The notes: generated by a model not told the origin, from the sequence alone. A stretch of DNA of 64,000 nucleotides from a bacterium (GCA_023267755.1 JAHFMR010000002.1:42463-106462), one strand, 5' to 3'; numbered from the stretch's first letter, positions 1-35,037 are shown. A program made the numbers and translations.

Positions 1-38
1 ATCTTTCGCTCGTCGCGATACCTGCAAACCTCATTACG

Positions 39-335
39 ATGCCGGTGGTCCCACTCACGATGGCACTCTCGGCGCTCGCCGGGCTTGCTGGCGTACTCTT
101 CAGCTCCTTCGCCCCGATGCTCGGCACCCTCCTCTCATTCCCAGCGTACCTATTAAATGCGTATCTCATATTTATTGCACAAAATGCGGCAGCGTTACCG
201 CTTGCCGCATTCATACTTCCCGCATTCCCGTTCTGGCTTGTCCTCGCTGCGTATGCGGGACTGATCTACTTCGCTTCTTCAAAACGCTTCTCGATGACCG
301 ACCAATTGAGCGCTGCGAGAAAAGCGTCGATATAG
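39..335 (+). CDS. Hypothetical polytopic membrane protein fragment. The ORF is open to the window start and could be the N-terminal membrane part of a ComEC-like protein.
   Basis: The ORF translates to three or more hydrophobic helices. Its 3' end overlaps the sodA 3' end on the opposite strand. There are no catalytic motifs. Confidence 0.3.
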   Translation: MPVVPLTMALSALAGLAGVLFSSFAPMLGTLLSFPAYLLNAYLIFIAQNAAALPLAAFILPAFPFWLVLAAYAGLIYFASSKRFSMTDQLSAARKASI

Positions 336-2268: not shown

Positions 2269-2679
2269 ATGGAATACCAGGTGCCGCAGTTCATTGAGGC
2301 CGAAGACAAGATTGTTGGGCCTTTAACCTTGAAGCAATTCATCTACCTCGCTGGCGGATGTGGGCTCTGCGTCGTCTCTTTCCATTTCTTGCCGATTGTT
2401 TTTGCACTTCTTATCTCGGCACTCATCGTAGCCTTTGTTGCTGCGCTTGCATTCTACACAATAAATGGGAAGCCGTTTATTGAAATGGTCGAGGCCGGCT
2501 TTAGTTATTACACACGTGCAAAGCTCTTCCTCTGGCAACATCAGGACCCGAAAATTGCGAAGGAGCCGGTCGCTCCTGCTGCTGTTCACGCACTCCGCGG
2601 GACGCCGAAACTGACGAGAGGGAAGCTCTCCGAGCTCGCGTGGTCGCTCGATATTTCTTCCAAAGGCGGACAAAAATAA
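2269..2679 (+). CDS. PrgI-family (VirB3-like) small membrane protein of a type IV secretion-like system
   Basis: MEYQVPQFIEAEDKIVGPLTLKQFIYLAGG followed by two TM helices. It sits directly upstream of the VirB4-like ATPase. The N-terminal pattern is typical of PrgI-family proteins. Confidence 0.7.
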   Translation: MEYQVPQFIEAEDKIVGPLTLKQFIYLAGGCGLCVVSFHFLPIVFALLISALIVAFVAALAFYTINGKPFIEMVEAGFSYYTRAKLFLWQHQDPKIAKEPVAPAAVHALRGTPKLTRGKLSELAWSLDISSKGGQK

Positions 2680-2680
2680 T

Positions 2681-3310
2681 ATGGCTATTACCTCGGCAAA
2701 TGCGACCCAGCAATTCGTCCCGGTCAAAGAGATTCGGAATGGCGTCATCATCCTCAAAGACGGCAGTTATCGCGGCGTGCTCATCTGCTCCTCGGTCAAC
2801 TTCGGATTGAAGTCGGCTGATGAGCAGCACGCTATTACACTTGGCTTCCAGAATTTTCTCAATACGCTCGATTTCTCGATACAAATCACCATCAATTCAC
2901 GACGGATGGATTTGCGCCCTTATCTCGCGTTTCTTGCCGAGAAAGAGCCCGATCAAAAGAGCGAACTGATGCGCATCCAGCTCCGTGAGTATATCGAGTT
3001 CATCCGATCATTTACTGACCAGTTAAATATTATGACAAAGTCCTTTTATGTCATCGTCCCATACGCACCGCACTTCTCTGCCGCAAGCTCTATAGGCTTC
3101 CTCAAACACGATGCCGGTGCGACACATATTGCAGAAAGTTCCTTCGAAGAAGACCGTGCCCAACTTGAACAGCGTCTCTCGCTCGTCGGGGGCGGGCTTG
3201 AGAGCATCGGCGTGCGTGCGGTCCCGCTCGGCACCGAAGAGGTTATTGAGCTTCTGTACCGCTCTTTCAACCCCGGCGAGCTCGAGAATCCTATTCGTCT
3301 CGACAATTGA
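2681..3310 (+). CDS. Hypothetical protein, either an accessory T4SS component or a split-off VirB4 N-terminal domain
   Basis: The 209-aa ORF is translationally coupled on both sides. Its stop is 1 nt before the VirB4-like start and its start is 1 nt after the PrgI stop. There is no TM segment. Confidence 0.55.
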   Translation: MAITSANATQQFVPVKEIRNGVIILKDGSYRGVLICSSVNFGLKSADEQHAITLGFQNFLNTLDFSIQITINSRRMDLRPYLAFLAEKEPDQKSELMRIQLREYIEFIRSFTDQLNIMTKSFYVIVPYAPHFSAASSIGFLKHDAGATHIAESSFEEDRAQLEQRLSLVGGGLESIGVRAVPLGTEEVIELLYRSFNPGELENPIRLDN

Positions 3311-3311
3311 T

Positions 3312-5129
3312 ATGGCACTCCTCGATTTCCTCAACAAGAAGAAAGAAGAAGCTCCTTCCATCCTGCCGGTATTGCCGAAGGATATCTACAATAAGGGTGC
3401 ACTTGACCTTATCGACACCATCGCCCCGACAGCACTCAAGGTGAGTCCGCGTGAGCTGGAGCTCGGCGAGAAGTTTGTTCGTGCCTTCTACACAATCTCC
3501 TATCCACGCTATCTTTCTGACAGCTGGTTCTCACCGGTCATCAATCTCGATAAAATGCTCGATGTTTCTATCTTCATCCACCCCATAGACACCGAGCAGG
3601 CGTTGCACACCTTTCAGAAGAAGGTCGCTGAATATCAGAGCCAAATTAACGAGCGCGAAGCAAAGGGGCTCGTGCGCGACCCTGCTCTCGACACCGGATA
3701 TCAAGACCTCGAGAGTCTCCGCGACAGCTTGCAACAGGCCCAAGAAAAACTTTTTGACGTCGGGCTGTATCTCGCACTCTACGGCGACACTAAGGAGGAG
3801 ATAGAGAAGACCGAAGGGAACATTCGTGGCCTTCTCGACTCGAAGCTGGTCTACACCAAGCCGGCACTCTTCCAACAAGAGCAAGGCTTCCGTTCTTGCC
3901 TCCCACTCGGCACTGACGAGCTCCTCGTCAACTCCAAGCTGAACTCCTCACCGCTTTCCTCCATCTTCCCCTTTGTTTCCTTCGACCTCACGAGCGACCG
4001 CGGCATTCTCTATGGGATAAACAGACATAATTCTTCGCTCATTCTCTTCGATCGTTTCTCCCTTGAGAACTACAACTCGGTCGTCTTCGCGAAGTCAGGC
4101 TCCGGCAAGAGCTATGCCACTAAGCTTGAGATTATCCGCTCGCTTATGTTCGGTACCGACGTCATCGTCATCGACCCTGAACGCGAATATGAGCAGCTCG
4201 CTGAAGCGACCGGCGGACGCTCGTTCCATATCTCACTCTCCTCCGAGCACCACATCAATCCATTTGACCTTCCGCCGGTGAAGGAAGACGAGGACCCGAA
4301 GGATATTCTGCGTTCTAATATCATCAATCTCGTTGGGCTCTTCCGCATTATGCTCTCCGGTCTCTCGCCAGAAGAAGACGCGATTATTGATCGTGCGGTG
4401 AGCGAGACATATGCGCTTAAGGATATTACTGGCGATACTGACTTTACCGGTGCCGAGCCGCCGCTTCTCTCTGACTTCGAGCAAGTGCTCTCGGGGATGG
4501 AGGGAAGTGCTTCACTCCTCGAACGCCTTTCCAAGTACACCCGCGGCACGTGGGCAGGATTCCTCAATCAACCGACCAATATCGATATCAAGCAACAGTT
4601 TGTGGTCTTCTCGGTGCGCGATATGGAGGATGAACTGAAGCCGATCGCGATGTATATCCTCACGCACTATATCTGGAACGCGGTCCGTCACGAGTTGAAA
4701 AAGCGTCTCCTGATTATCGACGAGGCGTGGTGGATGATGAAGAGTGACGACACCGCAAGCTTCCTCTACAGCCTCGCTAAGCGCGGCCGCAAGTACTATC
4801 TCGGCGTCTGCACGATTACTCAGGACGTCGAAGACTTCCTTAAGAGCCCGTATGGTCGCCCGATTCTTACCAACTCATCGCTCCAACTTCTCTTGAAGCA
4901 GTCGCCCACCACTATCGATGTTCTCCAGAAGACATTCAACCTTACCGACGAGGAGAAGTATCTCCTGCTCGAAGCGGGGGTGGGGGAAGGGCTCTTCTTT
5001 GCCGGACTGAAACACGTCGCTATAAAGGTCGTCGGAAGCTACACCGAGGATCAGATCATCACCTCTGACCCCTCACAGCTCCTCGCGATAAAGAAGGAAA
5101 AGGATCGCCATGCCGCTGAGAAGAGCTAA
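3312..5129 (+). CDS. virB4: VirB4/TrbE/CagE-family type IV secretion ATPase
   Basis: It has a Walker A motif (VVFAKSGSGKSY), a Walker B/DEAW-like motif (LLIIDEAWWMM) and the C-terminal architecture of VirB4-like conjugal-transfer ATPases. The start is taken at MALLDFL because the upstream in-frame extension overlaps the preceding gene. Confidence 0.85.
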   Translation: MALLDFLNKKKEEAPSILPVLPKDIYNKGALDLIDTIAPTALKVSPRELELGEKFVRAFYTISYPRYLSDSWFSPVINLDKMLDVSIFIHPIDTEQALHTFQKKVAEYQSQINEREAKGLVRDPALDTGYQDLESLRDSLQQAQEKLFDVGLYLALYGDTKEEIEKTEGNIRGLLDSKLVYTKPALFQQEQGFRSCLPLGTDELLVNSKLNSSPLSSIFPFVSFDLTSDRGILYGINRHNSSLILFDRFSLENYNSVVFAKSGSGKSYATKLEIIRSLMFGTDVIVIDPEREYEQLAEATGGRSFHISLSSEHHINPFDLPPVKEDEDPKDILRSNIINLVGLFRIMLSGLSPEEDAIIDRAVSETYALKDITGDTDFTGAEPPLLSDFEQVLSGMEGSASLLERLSKYTRGTWAGFLNQPTNIDIKQQFVVFSVRDMEDELKPIAMYILTHYIWNAVRHELKKRLLIIDEAWWMMKSDDTASFLYSLAKRGRKYYLGVCTITQDVEDFLKSPYGRPILTNSSLQLLLKQSPTTIDVLQKTFNLTDEEKYLLLEAGVGEGLFFAGLKHVAIKVVGSYTEDQIITSDPSQLLAIKKEKDRHAAEKS

Positions 5130-5790
5130 GGTCGAGCCTGAGCCGCCGGTGATGACCTGGAGGAAGGCCGCACCTGTCCTCGCAGTAGCGGGCATCTTCG
5201 ACTTCCTGCGTCTCCTCTGTATCTTCTTCTGGTTCCTCGGGCCGGCGCTCGCAGCGATTTACTGCGTTAACAAAGTGAGTGGGTGGGTGGGGTCACTATG
5301 GGGATTAACCGCTACAGTGTGCGCCGCGACGTCTGGTGCCGCTGGCATTGCCGCCTCGGAAATAACCATACCGCTCGGTGCCATTCTCGCTGACGCGGCC
5401 GCCCTCATCGGCTTTCTCACGCTCGGGATGATTATTATTATGAGTAATAAGCGCATTCTGAAAACCGTCACTTCAGCCCCGCTCCAGTTCACCGCGGCCT
5501 TCGGCGTGAGTGCTATTCCTTTTATCGGCTCTGTCTTGCCTGCTTTCACCTTCATCCTCTGGCGACTGTATCGAGGACAGATTCGTGTCGAAAAAGCGGC
5601 CCATAAAAAATGGGGGGAGGAGACGGCTGCTGCCAGAAAGGAGACACGGAATCAGCAACAAGCGCAACTACTTCAGCAGCAGGCAGTCATACAGGCACAG
5701 ACAGCACAAGAGGCGGCCAATGATGAGGCTTTTGCTCAAACAGAAAATGAAGAAAACATATCCCCTGAAGAAGAGCCGTTGGCGGCCTAA
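5110..5790 (+). CDS. Hypothetical polytopic membrane protein with a Q-rich C-terminal tail, likely a T4SS-like locus component
   Basis: It has 4-5 TM helices and a C-terminal QQAQLLQQQAVIQAQTAQ low-complexity tail. It overlaps the virB4 stop by 20 nt, indicating operonic coupling. Confidence 0.55.
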   Translation: MPLRRAKVEPEPPVMTWRKAAPVLAVAGIFDFLRLLCIFFWFLGPALAAIYCVNKVSGWVGSLWGLTATVCAATSGAAGIAASEITIPLGAILADAAALIGFLTLGMIIIMSNKRILKTVTSAPLQFTAAFGVSAIPFIGSVLPAFTFILWRLYRGQIRVEKAAHKKWGEETAAARKETRNQQQAQLLQQQAVIQAQTAQEAANDEAFAQTENEENISPEEEPLAA

Positions 5791-5819
5791 CCTCCTTGTG
5801 CAGGCTATATACTAGAAGT

Positions 5820-6803
5820 ATGCGTCCGTATCTTCTGTCGGCACTTATTCTCTTGTCGCCCTTTGCCGCCCTCGCACAGCTCGGCGATACGCCGGGGAGT
5901 CTTGATCCTTTCACACTGTCAGTCAGCCCGCAGTATGTGGCCCCCTACAGCCGAGCGACCCTTTTTGTACAATCATCTTCCCTCAATCTCGCTAATGCGA
6001 CGATGGTTGTTACCGTTGCTGGCAAAGACATCTACCAAGGTAGTGTGCAGTCTATCCCTATTCCCGCAGGGAAGGCGGGAGTTGCTATCGTAGTGAGAGT
6101 GAAAATTACGTCCGGCGGCACGCCGTATACACAGACGGTGTCTATCCAGCCCCAGGACGTCTCCATTGTCGTGGAGCCGGTCTCTTCGGCTCCGGTGCTC
6201 TACCCCGGGAAGCCCGCGATACCCGCGGGGGGCAGCTCGCGCATCGTCGCGGTGGCAAATATGCGCACTGCCCGCGGCGCGCCGGTCGACCCGACGACGC
6301 TCTCGTATGCTTGGGCAGTCGATGGAACCCAGATTGAGAACTCCTCCGGCATTGGCAGGTCATCTCTCTTGGTCGCCTCGCCCATTGCCTATCGTTCTCG
6401 CCCGGTCTCGGTCACGGTAACGAACTCAGACAGCACGCTCATCGGCGGTGATTCGACTACCCTCTATGCAAAGGATCCGTCCGTGCGCATCTACGCAAAT
6501 GATCCACTCCTCGGTATCCGCTTTGACCACGCTCTCACGGAGACTTATGCTATCTCCGGTGCAGAAGCCACTCTCTACGCCGCCCCGTTTTCATTCCCGA
6601 CCACCGGCGGCGCTCCGCTCCTCCAGTGGTTCCTTAATGGCGCTGTAGCACAAACAGGCGCTTCTATAACGCTCCGGCCGACTGGAAATGGGCAGGGAGA
6701 CGCCTCACTCTCGCTCACTGCCTCTGCTGGGCAGTCTACGCCGGCGACCGCGAGTCTCTCGCTCATCTTCGGTACCGCAAGCTCTAACTTCCTTGGCCTA
6801 TGA
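5820..6803 (+). CDS. Hypothetical secreted protein
   Basis: It has an N-terminal signal peptide (MRPYLLSALILLSPFAALAQ) and is Ser/Thr/Ala-rich and beta-rich. Its stop overlaps the next ORF start. Confidence 0.55.
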   Translation: MRPYLLSALILLSPFAALAQLGDTPGSLDPFTLSVSPQYVAPYSRATLFVQSSSLNLANATMVVTVAGKDIYQGSVQSIPIPAGKAGVAIVVRVKITSGGTPYTQTVSIQPQDVSIVVEPVSSAPVLYPGKPAIPAGGSSRIVAVANMRTARGAPVDPTTLSYAWAVDGTQIENSSGIGRSSLLVASPIAYRSRPVSVTVTNSDSTLIGGDSTTLYAKDPSVRIYANDPLLGIRFDHALTETYAISGAEATLYAAPFSFPTTGGAPLLQWFLNGAVAQTGASITLRPTGNGQGDASLSLTASAGQSTPATASLSLIFGTASSNFLGL

Positions 6804-7450
6804 AACGTCTGACCCTCACTTCTTTTATCCTTTTCCTCCTCTTTACCTCTTTTGCTACGCTCGCACACGCAACAGGGTTCGTCCCGCTCGCTCCTATCTC
6901 TGGCCTCACGACAGTCCAGCCGACAGATGCCGGATTGTCTACCTTCTTCAACAATCTCTACAAATATCTCATCGGCCTTTCCGCGGCACTCGCGGTCATT
7001 ATGATTGTCTGGGGCGGGCTCGAGATCTCTACCCAGGACTCGGTCAGTAAACAGGGGGAGGGGAAAGAGAAGATACGCGGAGCGCTCTTCGGCCTCGCGC
7101 TCGTCCTCTCACCCGTGCTTGTCTTCACCATCATCAACCCCAAGATTTTGAACCTGTCGGTTGGTCTCGAAAAACTTAATGTGAATGCTCCGACGTCAAT
7201 TTTTGGGTCCTTTGGATCTTCCCCTTCATCTAGTCTTATTCCTAGCACCGCAACAAGTGGCCCCTCCTTCCCGCAATCTGAATTCCAGACAAGCTGTTCA
7301 TCATACTCAAATTCAACCAATGAAGTGATAATTGCATCTCTTCCAAAGACTTGCTCCGATTTCAATGGAACATCTATCGCTATGCTTTGTTGTTTCCCGA
7401 ATGGCGGTGTGAATACAACTAATTTCTCATGTTGCGTACACCCGAAATAA
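6800..7450 (+). CDS. Putative TrbC/VirB2-like pilin-type protein with a Cys-rich C-terminal extension
   Basis: A signal peptide is followed by two hydrophobic helices separated by a short polar loop (LSAALAVIMIVWGGLEIST ... ALFGLALVLSPVLVFTII), which is the VirB2/TrbC topology. The C-terminal tail contains 8 Cys. Confidence 0.45.
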   Translation: MKRLTLTSFILFLLFTSFATLAHATGFVPLAPISGLTTVQPTDAGLSTFFNNLYKYLIGLSAALAVIMIVWGGLEISTQDSVSKQGEGKEKIRGALFGLALVLSPVLVFTIINPKILNLSVGLEKLNVNAPTSIFGSFGSSPSSSLIPSTATSGPSFPQSEFQTSCSSYSNSTNEVIIASLPKTCSDFNGTSIAMLCCFPNGGVNTTNFSCCVHPK

Positions 7451-7455
7451 TTTCT

Positions 7456-8643
7456 ATGCGCCGAACACTTATTATTACCGGAATAGTCGTTGTCATCATC
7501 GGAGTCGGGGTCGCTATTTATTTCCTCTTCTTCGCGAAGCCGGCGATTACTGTCCCCGACACGACTCTTCCTTCTGCGGGGCAGGGGACCCTCCCTTCGG
7601 GGAGCGCTTCGGACGCTACAGCCCCCCAGAGCGGCCCCAAGGCCGTTACTGCGCGCTTGGTTAAGATTAGTGCTGGCCCGGTCGTCCCGGGCGAGGCGGT
7701 CGTTGATAAACGCGGATCCACTGCGAGCTCATCGCCTGAGGTTGTGGTCAATTACATCGAGCGCCAGAGTGGTAATGTCTTTATCTACTCTGAGACTACC
7801 CGGACACTCACTCGCGTCTCCAACAAAACACTCCCGGGTATCCAGTCCGCCGCGTGGCTCTCCGATGGCTCGGCGGCGCTGGTGCGGTATCTCTCGGGCG
7901 CGGACTCCTCCACGATAAACACTTACGCACTCTTCGCGACAAGCTCAGACGGGTTTTTCTTATCCCAAAACCTTACCGATGTCGCTGTCTCTTCGACAAA
8001 CATCCTGACGCTCGCCTCTGGTGTGAACGGTTCTGTCGCCTCACTCTCGAACAAAGACGGTTCCCATTCGGTCTCCATCTTCACTTCGCCGCTCTCTGCC
8101 CTCCGGCTCTCGTATGCGGGGAAGGATCATTATCTCGCTTTCACCAAGCCTTCAAATGCTCTTGCCGGTGGCGCATTTCTTGTTGATACCGCTGGGAATT
8201 TTTCCCGTGTCGGTGGCGCCCACAACGGTCTTGTCGCGCTTGCGAGTCCGAGCGGCAAATGGGTTCTTATCAGCTCGGCCCGCGGAGGCACGATGCAGCT
8301 GGAACTGGTAGACACTACTACCAGTGAGAGTATTGCTCTCCCGGTCGCCACTATCGCGGATAAATGCGTGTGGGCTACTGATGATTCGGCCATCTACTGT
8401 GGTGTTCCGACAACGTCTCCCGCTGGCGCTGTGTATCCTGATGACTGGTATCAGGGTGCGGTGCACTTCTCTGATCGTATCTGGAAGATTCAGGTCGCCG
8501 GCCGCTATGCACAGCTCGTGCTCGATTTTCCAAAGGAGGCCAAGGATGTGTTGGATGCCTGGGCACTTGCGCTCGACCCATCAGAGACGACGCTCGTCTT
8601 TGTTAATAAGAATGATGGCTCTCTCTGGAGCTATTCTCTATAG
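7456..8643 (+). CDS. Hypothetical membrane-anchored extracytoplasmic protein, probably a beta-propeller-like fold
   Basis: It has a single N-terminal TM anchor and a long Ser/Thr/Gly-rich ectodomain. It is the last gene of the co-directional block downstream of virB4. Confidence 0.5.
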   Translation: MRRTLIITGIVVVIIGVGVAIYFLFFAKPAITVPDTTLPSAGQGTLPSGSASDATAPQSGPKAVTARLVKISAGPVVPGEAVVDKRGSTASSSPEVVVNYIERQSGNVFIYSETTRTLTRVSNKTLPGIQSAAWLSDGSAALVRYLSGADSSTINTYALFATSSDGFFLSQNLTDVAVSSTNILTLASGVNGSVASLSNKDGSHSVSIFTSPLSALRLSYAGKDHYLAFTKPSNALAGGAFLVDTAGNFSRVGGAHNGLVALASPSGKWVLISSARGGTMQLELVDTTTSESIALPVATIADKCVWATDDSAIYCGVPTTSPAGAVYPDDWYQGAVHFSDRIWKIQVAGRYAQLVLDFPKEAKDVLDAWALALDPSETTLVFVNKNDGSLWSYSL

Positions 8644-9366
8644 GCCGTCCGTGACAAGCCGGCGGCGGACATAGAGCTCTTGCAGTGAACCGGCAAGGTT
8701 CGTGGTGATAAAGTAGAGCGCGATAGCACTCGAGGTGGTGTAGGAAATAGTTCCGATGAGGAAGGGAAATACATATTTCAGCTGCATTCCCATCACTTTC
8801 TGAAAATCGTTCTGAACTCCTTTTGTGTCCGAAGGCTTCATCGTACCTGAGAGCGAGAGGTGTGCCTGGAGGAATTGGGTGAGGCCCGCAATAACCGCAA
8901 GAATAAGGCTCTTTCCGGCGACCGAGAGAATCCCGAGGAATTCGAGCGACACGAGATGTGGAAGGGGTGTGGCTGTATAGAGCCGGGCGGTATTGATAGT
9001 CGAGAATGGCTCGTAGAGGAAGACAAAATAGAGCGCGAGGAGGACGGGGATCTGGATAAATGCCGAGAGAATACTGACAAACGGGTTCACCTGCGCTTCG
9101 CGGTAGAGATCGAGTGTCTCGAGCGCTTCTTTTTCCTTATCACCCTTATGCTTCTCTTTCAGTTCTTTTATCTTGGGCTCCAGTATCTTTATCGCTCGTT
9201 GAGTGCGTGCTGCAGAGAGTGAGAAAGGGAGCAGAATGAGCCTGATGATTATCGTGAGGATGATAACCGCGACTCCCACATCGCCCCCGGGGACGAGCGC
9301 GACGAGCGCGACGAGCGTGTTATAGATCGGGTTATAAAAAAAGGAGTTGAAGAGAGAAGAGATCAC
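8638..9366 (-). CDS. yidC: Membrane protein insertase YidC (short form)
   Basis: It has a YidC/Oxa1-like core with conserved TM helices and the LYREAQVNPF and IQIPVLLALYFVF motifs. It lies immediately downstream of rnpA in the canonical origin arrangement. Confidence 0.85.
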   Translation of the reverse strand: MISSLFNSFFYNPIYNTLVALVALVPGGDVGVAVIILTIIIRLILLPFSLSAARTQRAIKILEPKIKELKEKHKGDKEKEALETLDLYREAQVNPFVSILSAFIQIPVLLALYFVFLYEPFSTINTARLYTATPLPHLVSLEFLGILSVAGKSLILAVIAGLTQFLQAHLSLSGTMKPSDTKGVQNDFQKVMGMQLKYVFPFLIGTISYTTSSAIALYFITTNLAGSLQELYVRRRLVTDGL

Positions 9367-9383
9367 AAGGGTATTGTACGTTA

Positions 9384-9695
9384 TTAACGAATTTTAGAAA
9401 GAATATCGGCGAGTTCTGCTTGTATATCCTGATAAGACATCCGTGCAACGGTCGCGCGCGGGAAGAGGATAAGGGCGGCAGGGAGAAGTGGAGTAGCACG
9501 GAGTACTGAGAGAATCTGGCGTTTTATCCTGTGCCGTGTCACCGAAAGCCGCGCAATCTTCTTGGGCACCACTACCGCGTACCCCGTAGCTGCTGCGGGG
9601 ATGATGGCCGTAAAATTGGCTGAGGAGAGTCGCTTCCCCGCAGAGAGCGCCGCAGGGAAGGATGCTCGAGAAAATCTTCTCCGACGAGGAAACAC
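9384..9695 (-). CDS. rnpA: Ribonuclease P protein component
   Basis: It is a basic protein carrying a RnpA-type RNR-like motif (VTRHRIKRQILSVLR). It is positioned between rpmH and yidC. Confidence 0.8.
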   Translation of the reverse strand: MFPRRRRFSRASFPAALSAGKRLSSANFTAIIPAAATGYAVVVPKKIARLSVTRHRIKRQILSVLRATPLLPAALILFPRATVARMSYQDIQAELADILSKIR

Positions 9696-9701
9696 AGTAC
9701 C

Positions 9702-9845
9702 CTAGACGGACGTTGTAAGACTCTTTCGTCCGACACGCCGACGGCCCTGGACAATCTTGCGGCCAGAGGCTGTTTTGCTCCGAGTAAGGAAGCCGTGCGT
9801 CTTAGCACGCTTCCTTTTCTTCGGCTGATAGGTCATTTTCGCCAT
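9702..9845 (-). CDS. rpmH: 50S ribosomal protein L34
   Basis: Hand translation of the minus strand gives [47 protein letters not shown], the canonical L34 sequence. At 47 aa it is below the ORF-track cutoff and so not listed there. Confidence 0.9.
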
Positions 9846-9943
9846 ACTGAATGCAAATTAGGTTATACCCATGATACTAACAGGTTCTCCCCGAAACACC
9901 ACCCTGTCTTGTTTTAGTGTAAAAGCGTATACTCCAGAATATT

Positions 9944-11293
9944 ATGGACAAAGGGAATCCGAAGGAATTGTGGGAATACATTCTTACTCAGGTTGAACTC
10001 TCTGTTTCTCCAGCAAACTTCAATACATGGTTCCGAAACAGCTTCATCGTAAAGATTGAAGATGGAGTTATCTATGTCGGCGTGCCGAGTCAATTCTTCA
10101 AAGACTGGTACCTTAAGAAGTTCCACACACTCCTTCTAAAGATTGTCCGTGATATTTCTTATGAGTTCCGCAATATTGAGTATCTCATTGTGAAGGATGA
10201 ACGCCGTAAGGTGCAGAAGGAGGTAAAAAACACTCGTGGCGTACTCGAACTTCCGCTTGATGAGTTTTATATCAACAAAAGCGATAGTCTAAACCCACGT
10301 TACACCTTCGACACGTTCGTCATTGGTTCCTTTAATAATCTCGCTTATGCAGCAGCGCAGGCGGTGCTTACGCGTCCTGGTATCACCTATAACCCTCTCT
10401 TTATTTACGGTGACACGGGGCGCGGCAAGACCCATTTAATTCAAGCTATTGGTAATCAGTATAAGAAACAATATCCAGGGCGTAAGGCGTTTTATCTGAC
10501 TTCAGAGAAGTTTACAATCGACTACACTGACTCGGTTCAGGCCGGTACGGCAAACCGTTTTAAAGATAAATATCGTCAGTATGATCTGCTTATTATGGAT
10601 GATGTGCAGTTCCTATCGAAGAAACTAAAGACTGAGGAGGAGCTCTTCCATCTCTTTAACACACTTCACGACACTAATAAGCAGATTATTTTCTCCTCTG
10701 ATCGTGCGCCTGCGGCTATTCCTGATATAGCCGACCGCCTGAAGGGGCGCCTCGCGAGTGGTATGACCATAGATATCGGCGAACCCGATCCTGAATCCCG
10801 TATGGCGATAGTGAAGAGGAAAGCTGCTTCTCACGGGGTGATGCTCTCTGATGAAGTGGTTGAGTATGTCGCCACTACTATGAGTGGTTCTATTCGTGAA
10901 CTTGAGGGTATGGTGAATAATCTTATCTGTCACGCACAAGTAAAAGGTTTTGCGCCGGATATTCTTGAAGTTCGTCAGTCACTCCGATCATTTACCCGCC
11001 CCCAGAAGACTATTTCTGTAAAAAATGTCGTTGATAAGGTTGCTTCTTTTTATGGTATTGATGAAGAGAGTATTTATGAGAAGACTCGTAGAAGGGAGGT
11101 GGTGCGCCCGCGCCAAGTAATTATGTACATCCTTCGAGAAGATTTTAATATTTCATATCCCACTATTGGAACAAAACTTGGTGGTCGTGATCACACGACT
11201 GTTATCCACTCCTGTGAAAAAATAAAACGTGAAGTAGTTGTTGATACTGATCTCGCAAAAGAAATTCAGAATATTCGCACTCTTCTTGTATGA
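9944..11293 (+). CDS. dnaA: Chromosomal replication initiator DnaA
   Basis: The AAA+ Walker A GDTGRGKTHL and Walker B LLIMDDVQF motifs are present, together with a C-terminal DnaA-box-binding HTH domain (IGTKLGGRDHTTVIHSCEKI). Confidence 0.95.
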   Translation: MDKGNPKELWEYILTQVELSVSPANFNTWFRNSFIVKIEDGVIYVGVPSQFFKDWYLKKFHTLLLKIVRDISYEFRNIEYLIVKDERRKVQKEVKNTRGVLELPLDEFYINKSDSLNPRYTFDTFVIGSFNNLAYAAAQAVLTRPGITYNPLFIYGDTGRGKTHLIQAIGNQYKKQYPGRKAFYLTSEKFTIDYTDSVQAGTANRFKDKYRQYDLLIMDDVQFLSKKLKTEEELFHLFNTLHDTNKQIIFSSDRAPAAIPDIADRLKGRLASGMTIDIGEPDPESRMAIVKRKAASHGVMLSDEVVEYVATTMSGSIRELEGMVNNLICHAQVKGFAPDILEVRQSLRSFTRPQKTISVKNVVDKVASFYGIDEESIYEKTRRREVVRPRQVIMYILREDFNISYPTIGTKLGGRDHTTVIHSCEKIKREVVVDTDLAKEIQNIRTLLV

Positions 11294-11405
11294 CTTCTTT
11301 CAACGTATTGTACACAGGTTATCTTTTTGAAAAGAGTAAAAATAATCAATATATACAAGCATTTTTTGACCTATCCCCACTATCCACTATACTAATAAGC
11401 ATCGT
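11294..11405. promoter_or_regulatory. Candidate oriC segment (dnaA-dnaN spacer) with an AT-rich unwinding stretch and degenerate DnaA boxes
   Basis: The AT-rich run aaaagagtaaaaataatcaatatatacaag is followed by ctATCCCCActATCCACTa, two 7/9 matches to TTATCCACA. The spacer sits between dnaA and dnaN. Confidence 0.5.
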
Positions 11406-12506
11406 ATGATTATTTCTTTAGATAAAAAAATATTCTCTGAAGCAGTGCATACTGTTGCTCGTTTTGCAGAGCGGAAGAGTGGAACACTTCCTGTACTCTC
11501 ATCCATCCTTATTCTTGCTGGAGATGAAGGAATTAAATTACGTGCAACAAATCTTGAAACAGGTATTGATTTAAAACTCGAAGGAACCTGTACTACAAAA
11601 GGAGTAGTTGCTGTCCCCGCAGTAGTCTTACAACAAATTGCTGGATCACTCACAAATGAGGGGAGTATTACTCTTGAACACACTGGAGATATTCTTTCAC
11701 TCTCAAGCGGCACAGGGAAAAGTTCAATAAAAACAATTCCTTACGATGATTTCCCCTCAATTCCATTCCCAGAAAATCCAAAAAATAGAATCATCCTCCC
11801 GGGAATCATTTTAAAAAACCTCTTCACCACTATCGCCTCCTGCGCTTCCTCCTCAACTATCCGCCCAGAACTCTCAAGTATCTATCTTTCTATTGAAGGA
11901 GGAGTATTAACAGCTGTTGCAACAGACTCATTCAGGCTCGCAGAAAAGAAAGTTCCCCTCACTAATAAAGGGACACAAGGAAAATTCCTTATTCCCGCGA
12001 AGAATGCACTCGATATAGCGCAAGCACTTCCAGATGACGATATTATTATTTCATTTGATGAGCACCAATGCGCTTTTGTGAGTCAGGGTGGTATGCTCGT
12101 TTCGCGTCTTACGAACGCAACCTACCCCGACTACCGGCAAATAATTCCAAAAGAGTCTGTTGTTGAAGCGGTAATACTTAGGAAAGATTTTGAGACCGCA
12201 CTAAAACGAACAACTATCTTCTCAGATGCATTCCAGAAAATACGTATCAGCTTCGATCAGAAGAAGAATAAATTTATATTATTCGCGCGAAATACTGATA
12301 TTGGAGAATCCACCGAGACAATCTCTGCAAACATATCTGGAACTGCACTCGACCTCTCGTTTAATCACCGGTATCTCTCAGCGGTGCTCGCACTTACTAA
12401 TGCCGAGAGTCTCTCGCTTCTTGCTGCGGGTATCGGCCGCCCACTTATCATCAAGGGTGTTGGAGACACCTCACTCCTCTACCTCGTTTCACCGATGAAT
12501 CAGTAG
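11406..12506 (+). CDS. dnaN: DNA polymerase III beta sliding clamp
   Basis: It is 366 aa, has a three-domain clamp pattern and lies immediately after dnaA. Confidence 0.9.
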   Translation: MIISLDKKIFSEAVHTVARFAERKSGTLPVLSSILILAGDEGIKLRATNLETGIDLKLEGTCTTKGVVAVPAVVLQQIAGSLTNEGSITLEHTGDILSLSSGTGKSSIKTIPYDDFPSIPFPENPKNRIILPGIILKNLFTTIASCASSSTIRPELSSIYLSIEGGVLTAVATDSFRLAEKKVPLTNKGTQGKFLIPAKNALDIAQALPDDDIIISFDEHQCAFVSQGGMLVSRLTNATYPDYRQIIPKESVVEAVILRKDFETALKRTTIFSDAFQKIRISFDQKKNKFILFARNTDIGESTETISANISGTALDLSFNHRYLSAVLALTNAESLSLLAAGIGRPLIIKGVGDTSLLYLVSPMNQ

Positions 12507-15996: not shown

Positions 15997-16551
15997 ATGC
16001 AAAGAAACAAGCTCGTCATCGCGCTCGCCCTCACCACTGCCGTCTCAGCGTCTATTATGATGATCTCTGTCGCCTGGCGAGCTGGCTATGCTGATGGTTT
16101 CGTAAAGGGTGCTTCAGCGAAGCAACCACAAGGTCAGACACCAGCAGAAGTGAAAACTATCGTGGGGAAGATCAGTGGTATTACTGGTACGACAGTCACG
16201 ATACAAACATATATCACCGGATCAGCGAAACCTGTTACCTACCAGATTGGTACCAATTCTAGTACCACGTTTGAGCGGATGATACAAAAAGACCAGAAGA
16301 CATACCAAGCCGAACAAGTCACCTTTAGTGCGAAACTGAAAACAGCAAGGGCAAATGGTACTGTGACTCCTCTTGGTCCGATTCCTCCCGCCCCATTTAC
16401 TTTGCAAAAGAGTTCTCTAATCAATCTTCGTATAGGGGATGTTATTTTAACGATAATGCCTAGAAATACTCCAGCATCAGAGACACCTGTTGCGACAAGG
16501 ATACTTTTTGAGACTTTTCCTCAAACAGCGTCCTCATCACCACTACAATAG
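15997..16551 (+). CDS. Hypothetical membrane-anchored protein
   Basis: It has an N-terminal TM/signal segment and a Thr/Gly-rich ectodomain. A TACAAT -10 element lies 16 nt upstream. Confidence 0.5.
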   Translation: MQRNKLVIALALTTAVSASIMMISVAWRAGYADGFVKGASAKQPQGQTPAEVKTIVGKISGITGTTVTIQTYITGSAKPVTYQIGTNSSTTFERMIQKDQKTYQAEQVTFSAKLKTARANGTVTPLGPIPPAPFTLQKSSLINLRIGDVILTIMPRNTPASETPVATRILFETFPQTASSSPLQ

Positions 16552-16570
16552 ACATGCTGGAAAGCTTTGT

Positions 16571-18211
16571 ATGAAAAAGCGAAACATCCTCCTGATTTCA
16601 ATTTTCGCGGGAGTTGGGATGTTCTCTCCGATACCAGTCGATGCCCAGGCAGGGAATTGTTCTACCCTATATCTCACTCTCACTACCAATACTCAGAACT
16701 ATAGCGTCTATACTGCCGCTGTAGCGGCGGGTTGGAATTACGGCATGCAGGTCGTGCTCACAATAAACAGCGGCGTGTATGTATGGTCTGACAGTACGTA
16801 TCTCCCAGCGCTTGATACTTGGGGATTCCCAGAGAACACCGGCCTGACTATCATCAACAATGGGTACATCATTGGTAAGGGTGGAGATGGCGGGGGTTAC
16901 TTCTATATAGTCCCGCTTATTTATGGCCAGAATGGAGGGGACGCTATGTTCGTTACTATTCCAGTGACTATAGACAGTTCGCAAGGGTATATTGCAGGCG
17001 GGGGCGGTGGTGGTGGCTCTGGCGGTGGTGGTGGCGGTGGCGGCGCTGGTGGCGGTACTGGGGGTACTGCCGGGGGAGCGTATTATTTGGTTAGTGGTGG
17101 TATTGGGGGTAGTGTTGGAAATATAGGAAATGATGGAATAGGAGACAGAGAATTAATACCATCGGGTTTAGGCGGCGGTGCCGGAGGAGGAGGAGGAGCA
17201 TTTGGCGGTGGTTTTGGTAGTGCAAGTGGCGGTGGTGGCGGGAGAATACTCCCGGGAGTCGGTGGTAGCGGAGGTCGTGGTAATGCTGGCGGTTCTGGAG
17301 GTAATCCAGGTCTCCAAACTACTAGTGGTTATGGTGGTGATGGTGGTGGCGGTGGTGGCGGTTGGGGAGCTGTGGGGGGTGCAGGATACGCTAGCACAAT
17401 TGCGGGTGGGCAAGGGGGTAGGGCAATTAATACAAACGGCAATTTAATTACTTGGATCGGCGGACTCCCGGCCGGGCACGTGTTCGGTGATATCTTGCCG
17501 GCCCCAACTCAAACACAATCCGTGATCTGTTGCGCTCCAAACTCAGGCACGTTCTGCTCCGTCTCAAATGCGTGTGGTCAGGCTAATTACGGCATTACTC
17601 AATGTGACGGCTCCTGTTCCGCTTTCACTCTCCCAAATCCTTATGGGTATGGCACCTCCTGCACCTCCTCTCCCAACATCTGTGGACAGGCCAATACAGG
17701 AATCATTGATTGTGGTGGGACGTGTACCGCAACCGTGCCCGCTCTACCATCTAACTATGGCAATCTCTGCACTTCCGCTACGAATGCTTGTGGGAATAAT
17801 GTCGGAACAGTCAGTTGTGACGGAACGTGCTCGGCAACTGCACCATTCGTACCATCTAACTACAACACCCCCTGCACCCTTACTTCAGCAGCTAACGGCT
17901 GCGGTATGACCAACACGGCAACAGGCACCTACAACTGCTCTGGTGTCTGTGGTGTTGCCGCTCCCGCTACTCCCGCCAACTCCCTCTGCACCCCTCCTCC
18001 CGCTCCCACTATCTCCGGTCCTTATCAGAACGGACCATCCCTCATCAACCCCGCTTATGCCTATGATCCTCTCGGCTACCAAGTCTTCGCTCAGGCCACG
18101 AGCCCCTATGCCACTAATCCCGCAGTGGATTCGCATCTCACCTACTACTTCGAGTATTCTACCGATGGAGTGAACTGGACGAGAGGGGAGTGGGCGTCGC
18201 GAGTGAAGTAG
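16571..18211 (+). CDS. Secreted glycine-rich protein with four tandem Cys-rich repeats (putative surface/adhesin protein)
   Basis: It has a signal peptide (MKKRNILLISIFAGVGMFSPIPVDAQA), poly-Gly tracts of about 145 aa and four repeats of about 36 aa of the form C-x5-CGQAN-x-G-x3-C-x-G-x-C-x-A-x6-NYG. Confidence 0.7.
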   Translation: MKKRNILLISIFAGVGMFSPIPVDAQAGNCSTLYLTLTTNTQNYSVYTAAVAAGWNYGMQVVLTINSGVYVWSDSTYLPALDTWGFPENTGLTIINNGYIIGKGGDGGGYFYIVPLIYGQNGGDAMFVTIPVTIDSSQGYIAGGGGGGGSGGGGGGGGAGGGTGGTAGGAYYLVSGGIGGSVGNIGNDGIGDRELIPSGLGGGAGGGGGAFGGGFGSASGGGGGRILPGVGGSGGRGNAGGSGGNPGLQTTSGYGGDGGGGGGGWGAVGGAGYASTIAGGQGGRAINTNGNLITWIGGLPAGHVFGDILPAPTQTQSVICCAPNSGTFCSVSNACGQANYGITQCDGSCSAFTLPNPYGYGTSCTSSPNICGQANTGIIDCGGTCTATVPALPSNYGNLCTSATNACGNNVGTVSCDGTCSATAPFVPSNYNTPCTLTSAANGCGMTNTATGTYNCSGVCGVAAPATPANSLCTPPPAPTISGPYQNGPSLINPAYAYDPLGYQVFAQATSPYATNPAVDSHLTYYFEYSTDGVNWTRGEWASRVK

Positions 18212-20073: not shown

Positions 20074-21726
20074 TTAGTACGGGAGGTCGACAGCACCAGC
20101 GACTTCAGCGAGAGAGCTGATGCCTGCAAGCGCCTTGATGACACCATCTTGAGCCATCGTGAGGTAGCCCTGCTTGCTCGCCATTTTTGCAATCTGATTT
20201 TCAGCAGGATTATCGCGGAGGAAGTCGGCGAGCTCATCGTCCATAAAAATCGCTTCATAAAGACCGACGCGGCCGTGATAGCTATCAACATCTATCGGAT
20301 CCCACACCGTCTCTATCTTTTCAGGAATAAGCGACTTGTCCGCGAGCGGCTCAAACACTTTAGCAATCATCGTCTTCTCCTCTGCAGTGAGCGGACGTTC
20401 TTTCCGCTTGTCCGGATTGAGCTTGCGGATGAGGCGCTGTGCCATCGAGACAGTGACCGCCGAACCAAACGATTTCGGGTCTGCACCGAGGTCGACAAGG
20501 CGCGGGAAAGTTCCTGCCGCATCATTGGTGTGGAGTGTCGAGAAGACGAAGTGCCCGGTGAGTGCTGCCTGGATAGCGATATCTGCTGTCTCGGCGTCGC
20601 GGATTTCACCGACCATAATGATGTCCGGATCCTGACGCACGATTGACTTCAACCCTTCGGCGAAGGTGTACTTGGTTCCCTCCACCTGCGTCTGCACGAT
20701 GCCGTCGAGATGATACTCGATTGGGTCTTCTATCGTAATAATCTTTGTTTCGGGTGAATGGATCTCGCGGAGGAAGGAGTAAAGCGTGGTGGTCTTACCA
20801 GAGCCGGTGGGGCCGGTGGTGAGCAGCATACCGTTGGGCCGACGAATTTCTCGTTCGAGACGTTCAAGGAGCTTGGGGTGGATACCGAGTTCCTTATAGG
20901 AGACCTTGGTCGCTTCGGGGTCGAGAATACGCATCACAATAGACTCACCATAATTGCCGGGGATGAAGGAGATACGCGTCTCGATCTGACTCTCGCCGCG
21001 CACGATACTAAAGCGCCCATCTTGAGCCTGGTTTGTGACATTCAGCTTCACTCCCGAGAGCAGCTTGATGCGTGAATTAAGTTGGTGATACGTTGCTGGA
21101 TCAAAGAAGAAAGCGTCAGAGAGGAGACCATCGATGCGCAGGCGCAGGAGCGTCTTCTCCTCGCCCGGCTCAAAGTGGACGTCAGAGGCGCGCAGAGAAA
21201 AGGCTCCGGCAAAGATTGTCTCGAGGACGCGCGAAACACGATCAAGCGACTTCTCGGTCACCGCCACTTCAAGCTCATCCTGAAGCTTCCCCGAGGAGAG
21301 CTTCGTGAGCGTTTCTTCGGTAACCGTAAAGACGCCCGACTTCGATTCGGTCGCGAAGGAGAGCTCGCTATAGCGTTCAAAAGCCTTATCAAGGCTCTTC
21401 CGCGAAACGAGGAACGTCTTCATCGAGTAACCGCGCTCGGCGAGATCGGCGGCGAGCTTATTGAGCGCTTGGCTATTTGGCGTATGTATCGCGACCGAGA
21501 GCACCTTCGCCGCCTTCGCGAAGGCGGCAGCCTCAGCGGCACGCGCGTCTGCCTCGGGGATGATGCGAAGCGCGTCCGTGTCAATCTGCTTCAGCGAGAG
21601 GTCGACATAAGGTATGTCGTACTTCTCGGAGAGGATGCGCGCGACATCTTCTTCTTCGCGTTCGCGCACTTCAGCAAGCTCGGCATCAACGTGCGTGGTG
21701 TCGAAAGGGAGGTCCATATACGTCAT
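20074..21726 (-). CDS. pilB: Type IV pilus assembly / type II secretion ATPase (PilB/GspE family)
   Basis: It has the Walker A motif GPTGSGKTT, the Asp box, the His box and an N-terminal GSPII-like domain. The start is taken at MTYMDL, internal to a longer ORF. Confidence 0.9.
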   Translation of the reverse strand: MTYMDLPFDTTHVDAELAEVREREEEDVARILSEKYDIPYVDLSLKQIDTDALRIIPEADARAAEAAAFAKAAKVLSVAIHTPNSQALNKLAADLAERGYSMKTFLVSRKSLDKAFERYSELSFATESKSGVFTVTEETLTKLSSGKLQDELEVAVTEKSLDRVSRVLETIFAGAFSLRASDVHFEPGEEKTLLRLRIDGLLSDAFFFDPATYHQLNSRIKLLSGVKLNVTNQAQDGRFSIVRGESQIETRISFIPGNYGESIVMRILDPEATKVSYKELGIHPKLLERLEREIRRPNGMLLTTGPTGSGKTTTLYSFLREIHSPETKIITIEDPIEYHLDGIVQTQVEGTKYTFAEGLKSIVRQDPDIIMVGEIRDAETADIAIQAALTGHFVFSTLHTNDAAGTFPRLVDLGADPKSFGSAVTVSMAQRLIRKLNPDKRKERPLTAEEKTMIAKVFEPLADKSLIPEKIETVWDPIDVDSYHGRVGLYEAIFMDDELADFLRDNPAENQIAKMASKQGYLTMAQDGVIKALAGISSLAEVAGAVDLPY

Positions 21727-21841
21727 ATTACCATCCGCACACGCTCCAAAGCAGGGGGCTTGACAAAGTACCATTTGGGGGTATATAATAGCCCTAGGCC
21801 GTTGAAGGTAGACGGTACCCCACAAACTTAGGAGGTGCGCC

Positions 21842-22156
21842 ATGAAAAACCTTTCCGCTGTTCTTTTTATTGTCCTCACGACAGTCTTGGGCGGATGTGC
21901 GACCTACAACGTCAGCACGACGTCCACTCCAGAGCCGACGTCACGAGCGCCCCAGCAAACACCCGCGCAGCAGCAAGCAGCAGAATGCGCCGCACCTGGC
22001 GAATGGGTGCTGACGGGCGGCCGGTGGGTGTGCATCGCCAAGCCGGTAGTGATCGAGAGGCCGGTTGCGGTGTATCCGTACTACTATCCGCCGCTGATGT
22101 ATTACTACCCGGCAATCCGACTGGACTTCCGGTTTGGTGGTGGGCACCATCGGTAA
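21842..22156 (+). CDS. Hypothetical lipoprotein
   Basis: It has a signal peptide with a lipobox (LGGC), a Pro/Gln-rich linker and a Tyr/Pro-rich C-terminus. Confidence 0.5.
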   Translation: MKNLSAVLFIVLTTVLGGCATYNVSTTSTPEPTSRAPQQTPAQQQAAECAAPGEWVLTGGRWVCIAKPVVIERPVAVYPYYYPPLMYYYPAIRLDFRFGGGHHR

Positions 22157-33939: not shown

Positions 33940-35037
33940 ATGTCTTTCGGTTTTAGTGAAAAATTGCGCACTGCTTTTGCACCGCCTCGATACCTTGCAC
34001 CACCGCTATCCGGCATTGATCTATCAGCCAGCGGCGTAAAGGCGGTACGTCTTGTCCAAAGCCCTGCGGGACTTACGCTTGGAAGCTATGTAGAAGAGCG
34101 ACTCGCGCCAGGAGCCTTTGCTGAAGGAGAGATTGTCGATCGCACGGCGGTTGTCGCGGCGCTTTCTGCAGCCGCAAAGGCAGCAGATATTTCGGCCGCT
34201 AATGCGGCGCTGCCGGAGTCAAAGTCGTACCTTTTCGAGACGACGGTTCAGAATGCATCAAGGGTCGAGTGGCGCACCACAATCGAGCAGCAACTCGACG
34301 AGCTTATACCACTGCCACCGCCCGACGTCGCTTTCGATATCGTGAGGATAGGACAGAGCACAGACGGAGGCGTGCGAGTCGCGGGGGTTGGGTTCGCACA
34401 CCGTATTATCGATGATACGCTTGCCGCATTTGACCAAGCGGGCGTTGAGATTCACGCGCTCGAGGGAGAGCCATTTGCGATGGCACGAGCGCTTATCCCC
34501 GCAGGAGATGCCGCGACCGTGCTCATCATCGACGTGGGTAAAACGACGACGAAAATCTCAATTGTCGCTGGACGCATCCCGCGCTTCGCGACGACCATCG
34601 GCATCGGCGGTCACGCGCTCACGCTCGCGGTGCAGAAGCACTTCGGCGTGACCGAAGCAGAAGCACGCAAGGTGAAGATTGAGCGAGGTATCGTCCCGGC
34701 TCCCGGCAACGAAGACTATCTCGCCGCGATGCTCTCGACAGTCTCTGCGATTCGCGACGAGATATTGCGGAGGCTCGAATATTGGCAAGAGAAGGCTTCC
34801 CTCACCGAGGCACACGAGCCAGTGTCGCGCGCGATTCTTGCCGGCGGAAATGCGTCGGTACGCGGGCTCCCCGAATATCTCGAGGGGGCGCTCGGAATCC
34901 CGGTCGCCGCCGGAGACGTGTTCACCAATCTTGCGTCAAGAGACACATGGATTCCGGAGCTCGACTACGCCGAGTCACTCGCGTACGCGACCGCAATCGG
35001 TCTCGCACTCCGGGACGATACACACCTCTATGCATAG
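33940..35037 (+). CDS. pilM: Type IV pilus assembly protein PilM (actin-like ATPase)
   Basis: It has an actin/HSP70-fold pattern and is in gene order with pilN and pilO, overlapping the pilN start by 8 nt. Confidence 0.8.
   Translation: MSFGFSEKLRTAFAPPRYLAPPLSGIDLSASGVKAVRLVQSPAGLTLGSYVEERLAPGAFAEGEIVDRTAVVAALSAAAKAADISAANAALPESKSYLFETTVQNASRVEWRTTIEQQLDELIPLPPPDVAFDIVRIGQSTDGGVRVAGVGFAHRIIDDTLAAFDQAGVEIHALEGEPFAMARALIPAGDAATVLIIDVGKTTTKISIVAGRIPRFATTIGIGGHALTLAVQKHFGVTEAEARKVKIERGIVPAPGNEDYLAAMLSTVSAIRDEILRRLEYWQEKASLTEAHEPVSRAILAGGNASVRGLPEYLEGALGIPVAAGDVFTNLASRDTWIPELDYAESLAYATAIGLALRDDTHLYA

Follow-up and report, generated by a model that had tools for sequence, protein, structure and literature searches.

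A VirB4-type secretion locus of the Patescibacteria kind and its probable role in a host-contact pilus

What does a VirB4 ATPase drive when the usual partners of conjugation are missing beside it? The question is raised by seven genes in a 64,000-nucleotide stretch of bacterial DNA (GCA_023267755.1 JAHFMR010000002.1:42463-106462, hereafter the window), which an original prediction, made from the sequence alone, had described as an uncharacterised locus resembling a type IV secretion system (T4SS), with PrgI and VirB4 homologues. The locus is almost certainly a T4SS of the Patescibacteria type, a chromosomal operon with a pilin found beside dnaA in most of these ultra-small bacteria, and the answer we consider likely overall is a VirB4-driven pilus machine used for host contact and not for conjugation. 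The operon derives from the conjugation machinery of monoderm bacteria (the mating-pair formation class FATA, MPF-FATA, as in pGO1 and pIP501) and is no longer conjugative. The window offers a clean and compact example of it from a high-G+C, Kaiserbacteria-like genome.

Seven coupled genes around a split VirB4

The seven open reading frames (ORFs), labelled g1 to g7 in the order of the operon (Table 1), were confirmed on the plus strand at 2269-8643, all in the same direction. An independent gene call on an identical metagenome contig in ENA gave the same seven products, of 136, 209, 605, 226, 327, 216 and 395 aa; start codons were picked from the consensus N-termini of homologues together with the sequence itself. 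The intergenic distances from g1 to g7 are 1, 1, -20, 29, -4 and 5 nt and the g1/g2 and g2/g3 junctions read TAAtATG and TGAtATG, in agreement with the tight coupling that had been predicted. A scan for promoters and terminators returned counts at most about 2 standard deviations above shuffled controls, with no site at the operon boundary. For comparison, one genome per species was scanned, which gave 528 VirB4 relatives, and the best 80 of these (VirB4 identity 73-93%) were used as the related loci. They come from uncultured metagenome-assembled genomes (MAGs), nearly all of them titled Patescibacteria or candidate phyla radiation (CPR), for example Kaiserbacteria, Paceibacterota, Nomurabacteria, Taylorbacteria and Zambryskibacteria.

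The product of g1 matched Pfam PF12666 (PrgI) at 1.1e-10, with 42.3 bits against a cut-off of 27, which bears out the PrgI-like gene of the prediction. It has transmembrane (TM)-like segments at residues 31-49 and 53-71, and its position directly upstream of trsD is conserved in related loci. The VirB4-like ATPase was likewise recovered: g3 exceeded the cut-off of the NCBIfam CD1110 family (4.2e-112, 375.8 bits against 325) and matched TIGR00929 (4.5e-35) and Pfam P-loop_TraG (8e-26). Its best solved relative was the C-terminal domain of a Gram-positive VirB4 (PDB 4AG5, 8e-43), it could be aligned to TrwK of R388 (5e-6), and its Walker A (AKSGSGKS, residue 260) and Walker B (LLIIDE, residue 466) motifs are both intact. 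As judged from these profiles, g3 is a VirB4 of the Gram-positive CD1110/MPF-FATA type. The original prediction had proposed that the assignment should fall if Pfam CagE_TrbE_VirB did not match, and no match of this model to g3 was found. This is not a valid test, because the other VirB4 models exceed their cut-offs and because CagE_TrbE_VirB, as we take it, spans the N-terminal region of Gram-negative VirB4.

The 209-aa ORF, g2, which had been left without a name, is by its profile matches a TrsD-like protein corresponding to the N-terminal domain of VirB4. It matched positions 100-233 of the NCBIfam VirB4_plasma (Mbov_0397) model (6.4e-8), positions 1-119 of the CD1110 model (2.1e-6) and TrsD/TraD (0.01), all below the curated cut-offs; the BLASTP match to TrsD of pSK41 was weak (E 0.022), and PF26593 (TraC-like) is precomputed for the identical ENA protein. 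Since g2 matches N-terminal segments of full-length VirB4 models, VirB4 is split here into a TrsD-like protein and an ATPase body, the TrsD-like protein, translationally coupled, supplying the N-terminal domain. In every one of the 77 related loci, trsD closed with a stop codon and the virB4 ATG followed, mostly 1-6 nt on and in varying relative frames. A frameshift or pseudogene as the cause of the split was rejected, the split being kept in all 77. In three distant relatives (L046:4314-4757, L056:7514-8001 and L075:2974-3420) an insert of about 440-490 nt with a small ORF was seen between trsD and virB4; elsewhere the gap is 1-6 nt. We take the small ORF to resemble four-helix-bundle or 23S rRNA intervening-sequence proteins.

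Among the VirB4 models the one for the conjugal CD1110 family scores best, and PrgI-TrsD-VirB4 follow one another as TrsC-TrsD-TrsE do on the conjugative plasmid pSK41. Both would suit a conjugative element, either an integrative and conjugative element or an integrated plasmid, which sends DNA to other cells. Against this stands the chromosomal context of the operon. Eight markers were followed (PrgI, TrsD, VirB4, g5, g7, yidC on the minus strand, dnaA and dnaN), and the 48 fetched loci that hold all of them, among them named Kaiserbacteria, Nomurabacteria, Taylorbacteria, Zambryskibacteria and other Paceibacteria MAGs, showed the same order and orientation in every case, with a pilin gene found in 44 and rnpA in 31. 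Across these loci the divergence of VirB4 follows that of the neighbouring housekeeping genes, and the median identities to the window proteins were 82% for VirB4, 77% for DnaA, 57% for DnaN and 44% for YidC. VirB4 was more conserved than DnaA (9944-11293) in 47 of the 48. In addition, the G+C content of the operon is in line with that of its surroundings, no relaxase, type IV coupling protein (T4CP), integrase or repeat boundaries were found in the 64-kb window, and of 3,035 Patescibacteria genomes no more than about 100 contain any relaxase at all (PMC12102498). A conjugative element is thus extremely improbable.

The synteny and the level of conservation mean that the downstream genes are not chance neighbours and that the ATPase is under very strong constraint. 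The original prediction had allowed that g4 to g7 could be unrelated neighbours of virB4, not syntenic with it in related genomes; the downstream genes were syntenic with virB4 in 48/48 of the loci that hold all eight markers. All seven genes are co-inherited vertically under strong constraint beside yidC, rnpA and dnaA. A decayed remnant was excluded by the same conservation. A different arrangement was seen in one related locus (L042:9825-12785, VirB4 81% identical), where virB4 is followed by other genes, two polytopic ORFs with 5 and 6 TM segments, and where no g5 or g7 was found in the available sequence.

Constant, variable and missing parts

Three proteins of the operon, g4, g5 and g7, are unannotated. 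No sequence match of any of them to a known T4SS part was found, and fold searches with g4 and g7 found no known T4SS part either. The polytopic membrane protein with a Q-rich tail predicted for g4 agrees with its structural model (predicted local distance difference test, pLDDT, 80.8), in which long helices occupy residues 17-59, 65-112, 123-135 and 145-214 and the last of them continues into the Q-rich tail. The family retains an IP-x-I-G-x-LP motif, usually ends in Ala-Ala, and lies directly after virB4 in 61 of 74 loci by iterated profile search; it comprises only 287 cluster representatives among 1.84 billion proteins. In more distant loci this position is taken by short polytopic ORFs homologous to g4 (hhalign 97%, E 2e-11), relative to which the g4 of the window carries an insertion of about 45 residues, an extra hairpin. 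No similarity of g4 to TrsF or TrsL was found.

In two species, L068 (ORF 9812-11449) and L057 (ORF 9242-11455), g4 and g5 are fused in one continuous in-frame ORF. The L057 fusion has the g4 domain at residues 179-393 and the g5 domain at 408-737, and the fusions keep the signal sequence of g5 as an internal hydrophobic segment. As Rosetta-stone evidence, these fusions suggest that g4 and g5 act together. Long members of the g4 family (510-619 aa) were considered as further fusions and rejected, as their extensions have no g5 domain and no Pfam match. These members (P0297, P0299, P0302, P0308, P0333, P0339, P0345 and P0410) have an extra C-terminal extension of about 300 aa; a motif centred on SASTVRP is common to P0297, P0299 and P0302, three of the four extensions that were read, and P0410 has an HTHP motif recalling JAB/MPN peptidases.

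Apart from a hydrophobic stretch at its N-terminus (residues 4-22), the product of g5 has no TM segment; the stretch is read as a signal peptide, as had been predicted. None of its 527 homologues is annotated. Weak but consistent matches to Ig-like families were obtained across the family, to BiPBP_C in 104 of 119 homologues (best 7e-6) and to Cadherin-like in 32 of 119, and a search of g5 and g7 against PDB sequences gave nothing useful, g7 having no match. By profile search g5 was present in 74 of the 80 loci, and most of the six without a match stop soon after virB4. A signal peptide on both g5 and the pilin g6 could also be explained by two-step protein export as in Bordetella Ptl, in which the VirB4 machine would release Sec-exported g5, perhaps along with the pilin-like protein, as its cargo and these would not be structural parts. 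The T4CP is absent as it is in Ptl, and for the protein array of TM7x the same comparison was drawn by McLean et al. (2020). However, the array proteins proved to be VirB2-type pilins by hidden Markov model (HMM) searches (PMC12102498), and a monoderm has no outer membrane that would require a second export step. The identity of g5 across loci (24-62%, with fixed length and position) and its fusion to g4 in two species fit a structural subunit better, and export of this kind is quite improbable.

The TM-anchored, beta-rich protein expected at the end of the operon was found as such. In the AlphaFold2 model of g7 (pLDDT 84.7, predicted template modelling score 0.79), a TM helix at the N-terminus is joined through a linker of about 30 disordered residues to a seven-bladed beta-propeller. 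A Foldseek search against the PDB found only generic propellers (oligogalacturonate lyase at 1e-10, tricorn, WD40) and no T4SS component. There was no Pfam match, and the 834 homologues are unannotated. By profile search 65 of the 80 loci had g7; where it was not matched, the locus ends before its position, L042 excepted. No match to the VirB8, PrgL or TraM families was found in the window, and the only bitopic protein of the operon is g7, a beta-propeller and not the NTF2-like fold of VirB8. No VirB6/TrbL-like channel subunit was found at the locus.

The pilin is the variable part of the operon. A VirB2/TrbC-like pilin with an 8-Cys tail had been predicted for g6; the pilin stands, with Pfam PF18895 (T4SS_pilin) at 8.9e-10 and 39 bits against a cut-off of 26.6 and TrbC/VirB2 at 1e-3, but the tail has six Cys. 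In 55 orthologues, residues 1-120 showed 21-58% identity per 20-residue block, with 37-58% in the mature core (21-120), which holds the two-helix pilin domain, and 21% in the signal-peptide block. The C-terminal extension was about 10% identical, the total length ranged from 140 to 474 aa, and the number of Cys in the tail was usually even, from 2 to 16. In the closest relative, L001, VirB4 is 93% identical and yet the pilin aligns over only 49%. Of the 65 loci long enough to include g7, 63 have an ORF with a pilin domain. From this pattern we infer that the tail is a fast-evolving domain, probably stabilised by disulfides, on the exterior of the pilus.

A further difference lies upstream of PrgI. 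In 47-49 related loci, all with VirB4 of at most 86% identity and including the Kaiserbacteria MAG L019, four extra plus-strand genes precede PrgI (L019:1236-6906, L029:910-6902; Table 1). One of them encodes an extended VirB6. In L019 it matched TrbL_4 with 29 bits against a cut-off of 27; a TrbL/VirB6 match was obtained in 8 of 44 members of the family (best 1.9e-7), and an extended VirB6/TrbL lies just upstream of PrgI in about 47 of 77 related loci with a PrgI match. No match to any of the four genes was found by tblastn or HMM in the window or in the loci of its closest relatives, where the M50 protease, comEC and recJ lie upstream in place of the block; a metagenome scan for the block returned only the contig of the window itself. 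With the block present in most relatives, the operon has eleven genes there and seven in this clade. The absence of VirB6 that had been predicted is correct for the window, but it is a derived state.

Table 1. Genes of the operon in the window (coordinates are those of the window) and of the block that precedes PrgI in related loci
Gene	Product	Coordinates	Strand	Evidence
g1	PrgI/VirB3-like small membrane protein, 136 aa	2269..2679	+	PF12666, two hydrophobic helices
g2	TrsD-like, free-standing homologue of the VirB4 N-terminal domain, 209 aa	2681..3310	+	NCBIfam matches below cut-off, PF26593
g3	VirB4 ATPase (by profile), 605 aa, without the extreme N-terminal domain	3312..5129	+	CD1110, TIGR00929, P-loop_TraG
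g4	Lineage-specific polytopic membrane protein, 226 aa, long Q-rich tail helix ending AA	5110..5790	+	
g5	Predicted Sec-secreted protein, 327 aa, weak Ig-like beta-sandwich matches, conserved C-terminal NFxGL motif	5820..6803	+	
g6	VirB2-like pilin, 216 aa: predicted signal peptide, two-helix core, hypervariable Ser-rich 6-Cys C-terminal extension	6800..7450	+	
g7	Membrane-anchored seven-bladed beta-propeller (model), 395 aa, predicted outward-facing	7456..8643	+	AlphaFold2 model
Upstream block, gene 1	About 350 aa, TSP3 repeat		+	
Upstream block, gene 2	About 515 aa, unannotated, hydrophobic N-terminus		+	
Upstream block, gene 3	Extended VirB6, about 800 aa		+	TrbL_4, TrbL/VirB6
Upstream block, gene 4	Pro-rich protein ending just before PrgI		+	

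Surroundings in the 64-kb window

A site-2 (M50) protease gene stops 15 nt upstream of g1. At the other end g7 overlaps the convergent yidC by 6 nt, followed by rnpA, dnaA and dnaN, with the start of dnaA 1.3 kb and dnaN 2.8 kb downstream of the operon. The rest of the window holds housekeeping genes (RuvABC, PolA, several aminoacyl-tRNA synthetases, ThyX, dihydrofolate reductase and ribosomal protein L11). Searches of the entire window gave no match to the VirD4, relaxase, VirB11 or VirB1 families, as the prediction had reported for the first three at the locus, and no conjugation partners were found at the locus itself, which agrees with the earlier judgement that this is not a conventional conjugative T4SS.

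The prediction had placed the operon next to yidC and the origin of replication. The first is plain from the overlap; the origin is inferred solely from the dnaA-dnaN/rnpA-yidC neighbourhood. DnaA boxes were not enriched above chance, with no cluster of consensus boxes in the dnaA-dnaN stretch, and GC skew tracks the coding strand here. In the dnaA-dnaN stretch (10000-12500) the G+C content is 0.39-0.47, lower than the 0.52-0.58 of its flanks. The operon (2269-9366 region) points toward yidC, rnpA and dnaA; if the origin lies at rnpA-dnaA, its transcription would run head-on to replication.

Genes for competence and type IV pili are co-resident with the T4SS in the window: a fragment of the comEC 'Competence' domain at the left edge (3-335, plus strand), 2 kb upstream of the operon, a PilB-type type IV pilus ATPase with an MshEN domain (20074-21879, minus strand) and PilM (33940-35037, plus strand). 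Two further genes may encode surface proteins. The 573-aa product of 16490-18211 (plus strand) begins with a hydrophobic N-terminus and contains long stretches rich in poly-Gly as well as a region of Cys-rich repeats; the Pfam scan gave no match, the ENA record lists PF05268 (phage GP38 adhesin), and the protein is a possible surface adhesin. The 629-aa product of 53358-55247 (plus strand) carries DUF11 repeats (7e-12) and a TM segment close to its N-terminus and is likely to be another cell-surface protein.

Function and relation to known systems

Systems of this type have been described before (PMC7427843, PMC10633639, PMC12102498, PMC12857230). McLean et al. (2020) described, for Saccharibacteria and further CPR bacteria, homologues of VirB4, VirB6 and PrgI accompanied by an array of proteins with Sec signals. 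By transposon sequencing, Wang et al. (2023) found the T4SS cluster and the pilins to be essential for epibiotic growth of Southlakia epibionticum, in which a coupling protein and a relaxase were not recognisable (PMC10633639). Quinonero-Coronel et al. (2025) found VirB4 in 2,417 of 3,035 Patescibacteria genomes. These VirB4 proteins group monophyletically within MPF-FATA and are accompanied by TrsD, PrgI/VirB3 and VirB2-like pilins, but rarely by relaxases; in Paceibacteria and Microgenomatia virB4 lies near dnaA, dnaN and rnpA (PMC12102498). Tubular structures that their authors suggest may be T4SS pili have been seen at the interface of Minisyncoccota and host (bioRxiv 10.64898/2026.06.21.733656). 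The description of the locus as uncharacterised is thus out of date, the system type being published and essential for epibiotic growth in one cultured Saccharibacterium, whereas the view that PrgI and VirB4 modules are typical of CPR-like bacteria was borne out by HMMs, synteny and the literature.

On this basis the following mechanism is proposed. PrgI and the TrsD-like protein would dock a VirB4 oligomer at the cytoplasmic membrane, and VirB4, in the manner of Gram-negative T4SSs, would extract the Sec-inserted pilin from the bilayer and polymerise it to give a pilus or tube of the VirB2 type. The proteins g4, g5 and g7 would form a lineage-specific platform and a scaffold spanning the cell wall, in place of VirB6, VirB8 and VirB5. 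The hypervariable C-terminal domain of the pilin, probably disulfide-bonded and lying on the pilus surface, would set the specificity for the host cell, and the pilus would attach the ultra-small cell to its host and probably serve as a conduit for exchange. That the machine works through such a pilus and host contact is rather more probable than improbable. As there is no coupling protein at the locus, we lean toward import of host macromolecules, or toward a function of the pilus alone, rather than export of cytoplasmic substrates.

This leaning touches an alternative in which the machine is a dedicated importer of nucleic acids, like ComB of Helicobacter or Ced of archaea, with DNA or RNA from the host or the environment as a nucleotide source and attachment only secondary. 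ComB and Ced function without a coupling protein or a relaxase, and neither is present at the locus. Weak matches at the level of the ATPase were obtained to CedB and CedD, the comEC fragment lies nearby, and Patescibacteria lack nucleotide synthesis, one cultured relative reportedly feeding on host RNA. However, the CedB and CedD matches are confined to the shared P-loop region and lie far below the curated cut-offs, and no components like CedA or ComB6-10 were seen. In S. epibionticum the T4SS and the pilins are essential independently of ComEC, deletion of comEC being viable (PMC10633639; PMC12857230). A dedicated importer is unlikely, and it overlaps the host-contact pilus more than it excludes it.

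Several points weigh against the host-contact pilus. No relationship of g4, g5 or g7 to VirB6, VirB8 or VirB5 could be detected, and the roles proposed for them are based only on their position, topology and co-inheritance. Display of the C-terminus of the pilin on the surface is extrapolated from the termini of F-type and VirB2 pilins in pilus structures. Without the extended VirB6, the machine may be incomplete in this lineage or may be completed by genes outside the window. Finally, T4CP genes are common in Patescibacteria and usually lie far from virB4 (PMC12102498), so that their absence within 64 kb is no proof of absence from the genome.

A bolder proposal can be put forward tentatively, and we regard it as doubtful: that the VirB6-less, seven-gene T4SS of this Kaiserbacteria-like lineage uses g4, with its extra hairpin of about 45 residues, together with g5 and g7 as a new monoderm envelope module that replaces VirB6, VirB8 and VirB5, with a disulfide-rich pilin domain along the pilus as the determinant of host specificity. 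In its kind the system is not new, and the locus rediscovers a documented one. What is added is modest: the assignment of TrsD, the finding that g4, g5 and g7 are constant and yet unrecognisable, the g4-g5 fusions, the hypervariable pilin tail and the variant without VirB6. Among secretion systems the Patescibacteria T4SS is regarded as one of the most intriguing: nearly all of a vast uncultured radiation has it, the one species tested cannot do without it, and it appears to form pili in a monoderm. The locus defines which parts of it are constant (g4, g5 and g7), which evolve fast (the pilin tail) and which may be missing from the locus (the VirB6 block). It thereby offers concrete targets to structural modelling and to studies of the few Paceibacteria that can be cultivated.

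Compared with known systems, the locus shares with Helicobacter ComB and archaeal Ced a chromosomal VirB4-family ATPase without a coupling protein or a relaxase; it has no homologues of ComB6-10 or CedA. With the Gram-negative systems (Agrobacterium VirB, R388 Trw), in which polymerisation of the pilin depends on VirB4, it shares VirB3 together with VirB4 and a pilin of the VirB2 family, in addition to the alignment of g3 to TrwK. In contrast to these, it has no VirB5-11, VirD4 or outer-membrane core, and the N-terminal domain of VirB4 is a separate polypeptide. The MPF-FATA plasmid systems (Trs of pGO1 and pSK41, Tra of pIP501) have the same order TrsC(VirB3)-TrsD-TrsE(VirB4), followed by a membrane protein, and pSK41 is annotated with a small VirB2/CagC-like protein, TrsB, which may be compared with the pilin here. 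These plasmids additionally encode a relaxase, VirD4 (TrsK), a CHAP hydrolase (TrsG), a VirB8-like protein (TrsH), TrbL/VirB6 (TrsL), a topoisomerase and a single-stranded-DNA-binding protein, none of which is present at this locus.

The T4SSs of S. epibionticum ML1 (SEML1_0006-0019) and Nanosynbacter lyticus TM7x are likewise chromosomal, of monoderm type and equipped with pilins, in a cluster without a relaxase or T4CP; the low SEML1 locus-tag numbers suggest that the former also lies near dnaA. In Saccharimonadia, short divergent pilins in arrays of 4-6 occur together with a VirB6 homologue and with peptidoglycan hydrolases beside virB4. The present locus has neither hydrolase nor VirB6; its single pilin bears a long variable tail, and g4, g5 and g7 are present. 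The closest fit is to the T4SS of the Patescibacteria clade (PMC12102498), from which nothing essential differs: a VirB4 of MPF-FATA ancestry, adjacent PrgI/VirB3 and TrsD, a nearby VirB2-like pilin, no relaxase within 64 kb and a place next to dnaA, dnaN and rnpA are common to both. This sub-lineage lacks the upstream VirB6 block, and where that survey left neighbours without profile matches unannotated, g4, g5 and g7 are recognised here as conserved parts of the operon.

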